From IMG/VR virus record IMGVR_UViG_2526164669_000027: DNA of 48,145 bases; one strand, written 5' to 3'. The notes under the pieces are model-generated. The model had not been told where the DNA came from, did not search any database, and saw nothing but the letters and a program-made list of their open reading frames with translations. This DNA is from a virus (taxonomy: Duplodnaviria > Heunggongvirae > Uroviricota > Caudoviricetes). The translations under genes were made by a program, and so were the position numbers. Of the stretch, positions 24,196 to 25,104 are shown piece after piece. How positions within the stretch are numbered: position 1 is the stretch's first letter; each line of letters starts with the position of its first letter.

Positions 24196-24420
24196 TCATG
24201 AAACAGGCAACAACGTGGCTGTTACAATCTCCGCCATATTCGCGTTAAGATCACATTCAACAGAAATTTCTTCATCCGTGGCATCCACTTCATATGTCCG
24301 GGAATAACATTCCGTGCATTTACCACTGAAGATATCCTTAACCAGAACACGTCCACGCTGCAAAACCCTGAATGGAATCGTTCCGTTAAAGGGCTTTACG
24401 GTTACCAGTAATCTCTTCAT
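24196..24420 (-). CDS. hypothetical protein (74 aa)
   Basis: ATG at 24420 with GGAGGGG RBS; the longer track ORF starts from an unlikely upstream codon. Confidence 0.45.
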   Translation of the reverse strand: MKRLLVTVKPFNGTIPFRVLQRGRVLVKDIFSGKCTECYSRTYEVDATDEEISVECDLNANMAEIVTATLLPVS

Positions 24421-24582
24421 ATCCCCTCCGGATAAAAATGCCCCTTGCCGCCCGGGCAGTTGCTTGATTCGGCAAGATTTAGAATGAATAAGATAAAATT
24501 GGCACACGCAGCAGAATTTCATGCTTTCCGGACGCCGGCGCATCTTTCATTTTTCAGCAAAATATTCTGCTATTACAGGCGA

Positions 24583-24765
24583 TCAGTTCTGCATACACTG
24601 CCGAACACCATCAATAAGCTGACAGACCTGAGACGCGGTATCGAAAAGCTGGCGCGCCTTATCCAGGCTGACGCACCCCACCAATAAAAAAGGCACCAGT
24701 ATCGCTACCAGTGCCCATTTCGCCGCTGTTCGCGGCGTTCTGTGTGTCCAGTGTTTTCGCTTCAT
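24583..24765 (-). CDS. small predicted lipoprotein (60 aa)
   Basis: MKRKHWTHRTPRTAAKWALVAILVPFLLVGC...: signal peptide with lipobox LLVG-C. Confidence 0.5.
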   Translation of the reverse strand: MKRKHWTHRTPRTAAKWALVAILVPFLLVGCVSLDKARQLFDTASQVCQLIDGVRQCMQN

Positions 24766-24769
24766 CTCA

Positions 24770-24904
24770 CTATCCACCAATCAATCCGGATAAGCTCAAT
24801 ACTCGCCAGGCGGTGGAAATGAAAATGGCAACCAACATTGCTGAAAATGAAAGACCAACAACCACACAGAGAATTCGCGCCAGTTTTATAATGCTATCTG
24901 ACAT
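24770..24904 (-). CDS. small predicted membrane protein (about 44 aa)
   Basis: MSDSIIKLARILCVVVGLSFSAMLVAIFISTAW...: single hydrophobic helix; start inferred. Confidence 0.3.
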   Translation of the reverse strand: MSDSIIKLARILCVVVGLSFSAMLVAIFISTAWRVLSLSGLIGG

Positions 24905-24921
24905 ATTTACCCCTGCCCCAC

Positions 24922-25104
24922 TTACGATTTCACAGCAATGATCAATTTTGCCATCCCATACAGAATCGGAGACACAGCGATACCGACAGCCACCCACTTA
25001 ATGGCAAAAGCCACCGCTCTGCTGATGTCATCAGTTACAGGCGCTTTCAATTCAAGGCCGTTTTTCATAGTCAACCTAAACAGAATTCGTTTATACTTCT
25101 CCAT
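24922..25104 (-). CDS. small protein with C-terminal transmembrane helix (60 aa)
   Basis: ..AVAFAIKWVAVGIAVSPILYGMAKLIIAV.. Confidence 0.35.
   Translation of the reverse strand: MEKYKRILFRLTMKNGLELKAPVTDDISRAVAFAIKWVAVGIAVSPILYGMAKLIIAVKS

Follow-up and report, generated by a model that had tools for sequence, protein, structure and literature searches.

We describe a small lipoprotein gene, ORF E (24583..24765, minus strand), in the 48,145-nt stretch of the viral record IMGVR_UViG_2526164669_000027; this whole stretch is referred to below as the window. E is one of six small minus-strand open reading frames (ORFs), termed A–F in the order of transcription, that lie between a GH108 endolysin gene and the Nu1 terminase gene. 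Together they make up the distal portion of the late (lysis) operon in an Escherichia coli prophage that is lambda-like, packages by cos and has a lysis module of the phiP27 type. Judging from sequence and gene order, we hold it somewhat better than an even bet that E is an orphan o-spanin-like disruptor of the outer membrane in phiP27-type lysis cassettes. The two holins and the endolysin would remove the cell wall, and E would then destabilise the outer membrane, acting either alone from that membrane or with an unrecognised inner-membrane partner from the PF16931/PF05449 holin pair. A role of E in the last step of lysis is suggested by its position and by its mutual exclusivity with the canonical spanin genes Rz/Rz1.

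E and Rz/Rz1 in related lysis cassettes

A sequence-only reading of the window had reported a cluster of very small membrane and lipoprotein ORFs with no recognisable Rz/Rz1 pair, and searches across the whole window bore this out. Rz/Rz1 were not detected by tblastn with two Rz proteins and one embedded Rz1 from related phages, and no canonical embedded pair turned up elsewhere in the window. When all ORFs and all possible starts were scanned for a lipobox, E was the one late-region lipoprotein to emerge; the other convincing lipobox match in the window belongs to a Band_7 lipoprotein (43833-44660). A scan for proteins with a single N-terminal transmembrane (TM) segment, the type II topology of an inner-membrane spanin (i-spanin), gave no candidate near the lysis genes. 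E itself has no sequence similarity to Rz or Rz1 and no Pfam or NCBIfam match.

To place E in its genomic context, we gathered about 245 related loci from IMG/VR scans seeded with E, C and the PF16931 holin, from phage records, and from two metagenomic contigs with distant E, and mapped reference proteins onto them to define architectures. Class 1 cassettes consist of the PF16931 holin, the PF05449 holin, an endolysin (M15 or GH108), optional A/B/C/D, E, variable genes and the terminase. The commonest form of this class is the bare holin–holin–M15–E arrangement, in which no other membrane-protein ORF is present. Class 2 cassettes consist of a phage-21-type pinholin S, the signal-arrest-release (SAR) lysozyme R, C, D and Rz/Rz1. 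The spacing is tight and operon-like: E follows the M15 gene by 20 nt in 33 of 40 loci, D precedes E by 7-8 nt and Rz by 5-10 nt, and C and D are separated by 15-25 nt. In the window, 5 nt separate the stop codon of D from the start of E.

Intact E and Rz/Rz1 occur together in none of about 210 related loci, and nearly every cassette has one of them, in the same slot. The holin-anchored and C-anchored samples are unbiased with respect to E. Among the 62 usable loci of the PF16931 holin-anchored sample, 49 carry intact E without Rz, five carry Rz/Rz1 without E, one has Rz/Rz1 with a damaged E, one has a damaged E without Rz, and six have neither; three of these six were inspected, and they show an IS66-type insertion, a sequence without recognisable genes and a deletion of E, respectively. 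The C-anchored sample (68 usable loci) contains Rz/Rz1 without E in 43 cases, intact E without Rz in 24 and a damaged E in one; no locus has both genes intact or neither of them. Rz/Rz1 are absent from all 80 E-anchored loci.

Only two loci hold both E and Rz/Rz1, and E is broken in each. In phage GER2, which has Rz/Rz1, the E reading frame is interrupted by three in-frame stops. In locus L220, inserted Rz/Rz1 and a reverse-oriented histidine-phosphatase gene removed the first 15 codons of E, which encode its basic n-region. Decay of E where Rz/Rz1 is present is the pattern expected if the two are functionally redundant.

The upstream part of the cassette does not follow this exchange. Each of the 69 E loci whose upstream sequence is long enough carries both holins, and these persist unchanged where Rz/Rz1 replaces E. 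The endolysin of these loci is of the GH108 type in 37 and of the M15 type in 32, and a switch from one to the other leaves the rest of the cassette unchanged. Within PF16931/PF05449 cassettes, E and Rz/Rz1 appear to be interchangeable. A type II membrane protein embedded in, overlapping or within about 1 kb of the o-spanin gene, as expected of an i-spanin, was found neither in the window nor in the minimal cassettes. Nor did a de novo scan of the 163 loci where E is intact reveal any type II membrane ORF or second lipoprotein that recurs.

Anatomy of E and readings of its function

The E protein (60 aa; phrog_7528, E-value 2e-37) starts with a long basic n-region, MKRKHWTHRTPRTAAK, followed by an h-region and a lipobox (LLVG followed by Cys31) with Val at position +2. 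Under the Lol sorting rule, lipoproteins without Asp at +2 are directed to the outer membrane; E has no Asp at this position, and by analogy it would be lipidated and reach the outer membrane at its inner leaflet. It is the only ORF of the late region that has the features of an o-spanin lipoprotein (a lipobox, no Asp at +2, and a location in or near the lysis cassette). The mature protein of 30 aa, CVSLDKARQLFDTASQVCQLIDGVRQCMQN, has a net charge of 0 and is amphipathic (hydrophobic moment about 0.55); it is predicted to be helical. The AlphaFold2 (AF2) model is a single helix at residues 12-59 with a predicted local distance difference test score (pLDDT) of 69, a low-confidence model that adds little. 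Neither Cys48 nor Cys57 varies among 17 diverse homologues, and relatives with about 50% identity retain both; they could give disulfide-linked oligomers, as in o-spanins.

The family is narrow, being limited to Enterobacteriaceae and Yersinia (Escherichia, Salmonella, Citrobacter, Yersinia and Cronobacter). A HMMER profile search of 1.84 billion representative proteins returned only 20 clusters, and among these 20 clusters there is no distant relative accompanied by a proper i-spanin. At about 50% identity, the most distant members still have the long basic n-region, the lipobox, the amphipathic stretch and two Cys 8-9 residues apart. Two of them, P0328 and P0344, are located 7-10 nt after the endolysin gene of a Holin_8/Holin_3_7 cassette; the ORF that comes next is acidic and soluble, and no TM protein follows. 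A gene of 72-83 aa that overlaps the end of these distant homologues was considered as a partner and rejected, its product being acidic and soluble.

Phage phiP27 encodes a lipoprotein 87% identical to E, and shares with the window the order of two holins then endolysin, the position of the lipoprotein gene before cos, and a length of 30 mostly helical periplasmic residues. SpaninDB (Kongari et al. 2018, PMC6139136) lists phiP27 as a separated two-component spanin forming a singleton family, with an o-spanin at 20706-20861 (51 aa, 30 periplasmic residues, 83% helix) and an i-spanin at 20348-20542 (64 aa); with 62 periplasmic residues in total it is the shortest spanin known, at the lower end of the SpaninDB range of 62-300. 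The sequence-only reading held that none of the small ORFs resembles an i-spanin or an o-spanin. This stands for the i-spanin, and E is indeed not Pro-rich, but the phiP27 homologue of E had already been catalogued as an o-spanin.

The phiP27 assignment is bioinformatic only, and it pairs the lipoprotein with the 64-aa ORF, whereas E has no recognisable partner. That ORF (positions 3332-3526, minus strand, of our phiP27 locus L003) begins with TTG, and a 90-aa ORF on the other strand overlaps it. Only 3 of 168 E loci carry it, and the window does not, which makes it very unlikely to be a general partner; the SpaninDB i-spanin entry is probably spurious. The 51-aa start given there is also impossible for E in the window, where residue 10 is a Thr. 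The most fitting description of E is that of an o-spanin-like lipoprotein lacking an i-spanin. It has the periplasmic Cys residues of two-component spanins (Cys48 and Cys57). The combined periplasmic length is short of the catalogued minimum of 62: E contributes 30 residues, and about 44 are reached if the 14-residue tail of D is added. The mature part of E has no hydrophobic segment and thus lacks the C-terminal TM segment that, with an N-terminal lipobox, defines a unimolecular spanin of the T1 gp11 type.

Comparison with other lysis systems gives partial matches. Like lambda Rz/Rz1, E occupies the slot after the endolysin, directly after D where D is present, and would be an outer-membrane lipoprotein with periplasmic Cys; unlike them, it has no i-spanin, no embedded gene pair and no Pro-rich sequence. 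The colicin lysis or bacteriocin release proteins (BRPs) are small lipoproteins with a Gly/Ser/Thr-rich mature part of about 27-35 residues and a functional stable signal peptide, and they act late in a lethal programme, with no inner-membrane partner, to give macromolecules passage across the envelope; action by way of outer-membrane phospholipase A (PldA) is characteristic of them. E would resemble them in lipidation, in its mature part of about 30 residues and in its conserved signal peptide; it differs in having no Pfam match to them at E-value <= 1, in being helical by prediction and in carrying two Cys. The disruptin gp28 of phage phiKT, a 56-aa cationic and amphipathic protein, replaces the spanin (Holt et al., bioRxiv 10.1101/515445). 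It is, as is proposed for E, a single small amphipathic helix that is associated with the outer membrane and disrupts it in the spanin's stead; however, gp28 is cationic and non-lipidated, whereas mature E has a net charge of 0 and its precursor has a lipobox, so that E does not qualify as a disruptin. A literature search by protein accession returned nothing, and no paper on an orphan o-spanin was found.

Several points weigh against a role of E in outer-membrane disruption. All functional steps are deduced from position and co-occurrence, and the loci are related E. coli prophages rather than independent observations. Alternation in one slot can also arise by recombinational swapping of cargo with no shared function. 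The 30 periplasmic residues of E cannot cross the periplasm, and therefore the spanin fusion model is not transferable to it unchanged. Mature E is uncharged, unlike an antimicrobial peptide, and nothing obvious would keep such a lipoprotein inactive until the wall is gone. Finally, the signal peptide of E is more conserved than the mature part; this may reflect an RNA hairpin embedded in the gene, or some other function.

This terminator-like hairpin (24682..24716, minus strand; dG -18.9 kcal/mol, z -4.2) lies within codons 17-29 of E, in the signal-peptide region, and has a 10-bp stem, a GCGA loop and a U6 tract. Its 39-nt stretch is 92% and 85% identical to two distant E genes, and the rest downstream, mainly the mature peptide, only 52% and 42%. 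The fold is also predicted in loci L244 and L245 and in phiP27. The hairpin may explain why the signal peptide outconserves the mature peptide. We speculate that only antiterminated late transcription yields a full-length E mRNA. The 5'-truncated E remnants in loci L059 and L220 break at or near this hairpin.

A more specific and clearly less probable variant, which we put forward only tentatively, is that E represents a third kind of phage outer-membrane lysis effector, next to spanins and the cationic disruptin: a stand-alone 30-residue lipopeptide, held in the outer membrane and probably oligomerised by disulfides, that works without an inner-membrane partner and is functionally closer to the colicin release lipoproteins than to Rz1. 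The hairpin could then be a safety catch.

It is rather unlikely that E is one half of a very short two-component spanin, with D or a protein annotated as a holin as the other half. The order of D and E, with a gap of about 7 nt, mimics that of a separated pair of genes for an i-spanin and an o-spanin; D would be oriented N-in/C-out with a 14-aa periplasmic tail; the pattern seen most often is an o-spanin with two Cys and an i-spanin with none, and non-canonical i-spanin partners or topologies are conceivable according to the SpaninDB authors (PMC6139136). Intact E has also never been seen without the PF16931/PF05449 pair. On the other hand, D is missing from most M15-type cassettes, where E directly follows the endolysin, and it is found equally often before Rz, which is itself a complete i-spanin; the approximately 44 periplasmic residues of D and E together would be fewer than in any SpaninDB entry; and both holins are unchanged when Rz/Rz1 takes the place of E. 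A disulfide between E and the Cys in the periplasmic loop of holin 2 was weighed and rejected, as the distant cassette L244 does not keep that Cys.

We assign a similarly low probability to the view that the phage is spanin-less and E is a cargo lipoprotein, serving for instance receptor masking or superinfection exclusion, as do T5 Llp and Cor, or serum resistance, as does Bor, with C, D and F being morons as well. Small phage lipoproteins with exclusion roles are known, which lends some credit to this view. The same site holds cargo in other phages (the LT-IIb genes in SerU-LTIIb; bor and a phosphatase gene near Rz), E has no i-spanin partner, and in about 13% of the phages that infect Gram-negative hosts no spanin can be identified. 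Yet E is near-universal in one cassette type (49 of the 62 holin-anchored loci), and its position, strictly after the endolysin, is kept down to about 50% identity. It excludes Rz/Rz1 completely and decays exactly where they are present. No promoter was found on its coding strand, in contrast to lysogen-expressed morons, which usually have a promoter of their own, and Pfam places E neither with Bor nor with another lipoprotein family.

The neighbouring ORFs

The ORFs C-F span 24196-25104 exactly as the sequence-only reading described them, and each of its ORF descriptions is correct; the two soluble Cys-containing ORFs that it placed downstream of the endolysin are A and B. The exact A-F proteins are all present in public protein clusters, in tens to hundreds of contigs each and always labelled hypothetical, and each matches a PHROG family of unknown function (the profile matches of C, D, E and F being significant). 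Scans of A-F against Pfam, NCBIfam and PADLOC gave nothing useful. E DNA is found in 303 of 5,426 complete E. coli genomes (about 5.6%), and C-D DNA in 613 (about 11%).

That these ORFs are not made as proteins, and that the region is a non-coding spacer or a set of RNA elements (conserved hairpins) with incidental ORFs, is very improbable. Two conserved terminator-like hairpins do lie in or beside the ORFs, which are very short and in several cases unannotated in many phage records. However, all of them look translated. The variable sites among distinct homologous DNA sequences are biased to the third codon position in every ORF, with counts at positions 1/2/3 of 12/5/25 for C, 7/4/14 for D, 25/22/37 for E, 20/12/34 for F and 20/17/51 for B. 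ATG starts and stop codons are kept across these sequences, and clear Shine-Dalgarno motifs precede C (AAGGGAGAAC before the ATG), D and F (GGAGGGG). The lipobox and two further Cys of E are retained at 50% identity, and F folds confidently, with a pLDDT of 88.6.

The ORF C product (24922..25104, minus strand; 60 aa; phrog_1115, E-value 1e-40) has a basic N-terminal part of 30 aa with a net charge of +3, followed by a C-terminal hydrophobic helix at about residues 30-57, and on this sequence evidence is a tail-anchored inner-membrane protein. ORF D (24770..24904, minus strand; 44 aa; phrog_4906, E-value 2e-19) encodes one TM helix at about residues 11-30 and a 14-aa tail. C lies between the endolysin and the outer-membrane disruptor gene in both cassette types and, like D, is absent from minimal E cassettes; where present, D is always directly 5' of the disruptor gene, be it E or Rz. 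In PhiR12-type and Stx phages, C-D are located between the SAR lysozyme gene R and Rz/Rz1. Homologues of D with 70-77% identity are found just upstream of Rz in 276 phage records, including most Stx1a/Stx2a-converting phages. In most of these converting phages, of which VT2phi_272 (L247, 2498-2632) is an example, the 44-aa homologue is 5-10 nt upstream of Rz; many records leave it unannotated. Since canonical Rz/Rz1 accompany C and D in hundreds of phages, neither C nor D is a substitute for the spanin. C was also considered as a type I (N-out) i-spanin; this candidate was rejected given its positively charged N-terminus and its co-occurrence with Rz/Rz1.

A conserved terminator-like hairpin (AAAAACCCCGG...CGGGGTTTTCTGTTT; 25131..25174, minus strand; dG -20.7 kcal/mol, z -2.8) precedes C after four different upstream genes, namely R lysozyme, GH108, M15 and B. 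Homology between the four contexts begins at this hairpin, where the stem sequence varies and pairing is kept; in these alignments it marks the 5' boundary of a portable C(-D) module. On our reading, two unrelated cassettes have received the module, each at the junction of the endolysin and the last lysis gene. We regard C and D as accessory inner-membrane proteins, possibly acting on the timing of lysis or the state of the membrane; D may in addition serve as a translational coupler for the next gene. LambdaSo Lcc6 and the Mu releasin gp25 show that lysis factors can be small membrane proteins: like C and D, they are single-pass proteins of about 45-65 aa with a place in the lysis programme, and none of them is a holin, endolysin or spanin. 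In Lcc6 there is an N-terminal TM segment with a cytoplasmic tail, and its gene is remote from the lysis genes, whereas C is tail-anchored and D is almost without a soluble part; no homology of C or D to Lcc6 or to Mu releasin gp25 was found.

The sequence-only reading also raised the search for antisense RNAs of the type I toxin kind. The Pfam, NCBIfam and PADLOC scans found no toxin family, and an Rfam scan of the whole window found no family within 23400-27300 except a tRNA. The idea that C or D is a type I toxin (Hok/Sok-like or other) was therefore dropped.

ORF F (24196..24420, minus strand) encodes a soluble 74-aa protein that matches positions 100-172 of the 291 of phrog_2571 (E-value 2e-28). 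Its AF2 model is an all-beta small sandwich, and a search of PDB gave no significant neighbour (best E-value 0.2). F is sporadic and comes after E in some loci and after Rz/Rz1 in others, which fits cargo at the lysis-to-cos site. The same holds for A and B: ORF A (25537..25743, minus strand; 68 aa, soluble, six Cys with a C-terminal CxxCCxxCH; phrog_4298) is present in a minority of related loci, in some of them downstream of E, and ORF B (25176..25457, minus strand; 93 aa, soluble, five Cys; phrog_33497) is sporadic. F, A and B are best called variable cargo; the roles of C, D and F offered here are guesses. In SerU-LTIIb (L246, 5219-6368), the type II heat-labile enterotoxin genes eltIIbA/B directly follow the GH108 endolysin gene in the place of A-F, with neither E nor Rz, and in Stx phages bor and a phosphatase gene are found beside Rz. 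The choice between unconventional spanins and cargo, which the sequence-only reading left for the cluster as a whole, is thus split: E falls to the spanin slot, F, A and B to cargo, and C and D are accessory proteins rather than substitutes.

Layout of the locus and implications for phage lysis

The order of transcription, all on the minus strand, is PF16931 holin, PF05449 holin, GH108 endolysin, A-F, Nu1 and a gpA-type terminase. The first lysis gene, holin 1 (26648..27040; 130 aa), matches Pfam PF16931 Phage_holin_8 (E-value 6e-24) and the holin family phrog_198. Holin 2 (26380..26658, minus strand; 92 aa from ATG) matches PF05449 Phage_holin_3_7 (E-value 9e-22) and the holin family phrog_217, and has three hydrophobic segments. 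The endolysin (25833..26378, minus strand; 181 aa) has the Pfam domains Glyco_hydro_108 and PG_binding_3, and is of the soluble type because it has no N-terminal TM segment. A terminator-like hairpin with a T-run is located between A and B (25484..25513, minus strand; RNA dG -14.0 kcal/mol, z -4.1). Downstream of F, a remnant on the minus strand (24061..24117) preserves the last 19 codons of a phiP27 L33-type gene (tblastn, 100% identity, residues 97-115 of L33 only) and is a deletion scar between F and cos. The cos cleavage site is probably near position 23659, judging from the linear GenBank record of phage cdtI, whose end aligns to about 23659 in a G+C-rich stretch. The small terminase gene of the Nu1 type (22922..23488, minus strand; Pfam Phage_Nu1, E-value 3e-83) forms the downstream boundary of the cluster, and the gpA-type large terminase gene is at 21034-22953 (minus strand).

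Just upstream of holin 1 there are three terminator-like hairpins (27066-27232, minus strand) and, further upstream, a tRNA-Gly(TCC) gene (27517-27589, minus strand), an arrangement expected downstream of a late promoter and an antitermination site. No sigma-70-like promoter was found on the minus strand within 23400-27900, and therefore E is probably expressed only from the late transcript.

Outside the late region, Rfam matches on the minus strand include two tandem pairs of C4 antisense RNA and isrK (35725-36566), a P1/P7-type immunity or anti-Q-like RNA, and an ALIL pseudoknot (38789-38905). The latter is a frameshift signal of the IS3 family of insertion sequences (ISs), with ORFs at 37973-39186, and indicates that an IS element has inserted in the early region. 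On the plus strand, the region 43648-44660 encodes the Band_7/SPFH lipoprotein of 275 aa (lipobox LVGC), preceded by a 62-aa hydrophobic ORF; with an integrase gene nearby (45797-47110), these two are probably a lysogen-expressed cargo pair.

The case described here bears on the way in which phages that lack a complete spanin breach the outer membrane, and it concerns E. coli and inducible prophages of the Stx type. The analysis corrects the phiP27 entry of SpaninDB and gives a context to the E and C-D genes, which are now labelled hypothetical. The related loci form a natural swap series, in which the same holins and endolysin are combined with either E or Rz/Rz1, and the proposed role of E is therefore directly testable by lambda complementation. 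If E does work alone, it would be a minimal lipopeptide that disrupts the outer membrane, and it would be relevant to lysis mechanisms, to toxin release from Stx2e and LT-II prophages, and to engineered lysis.

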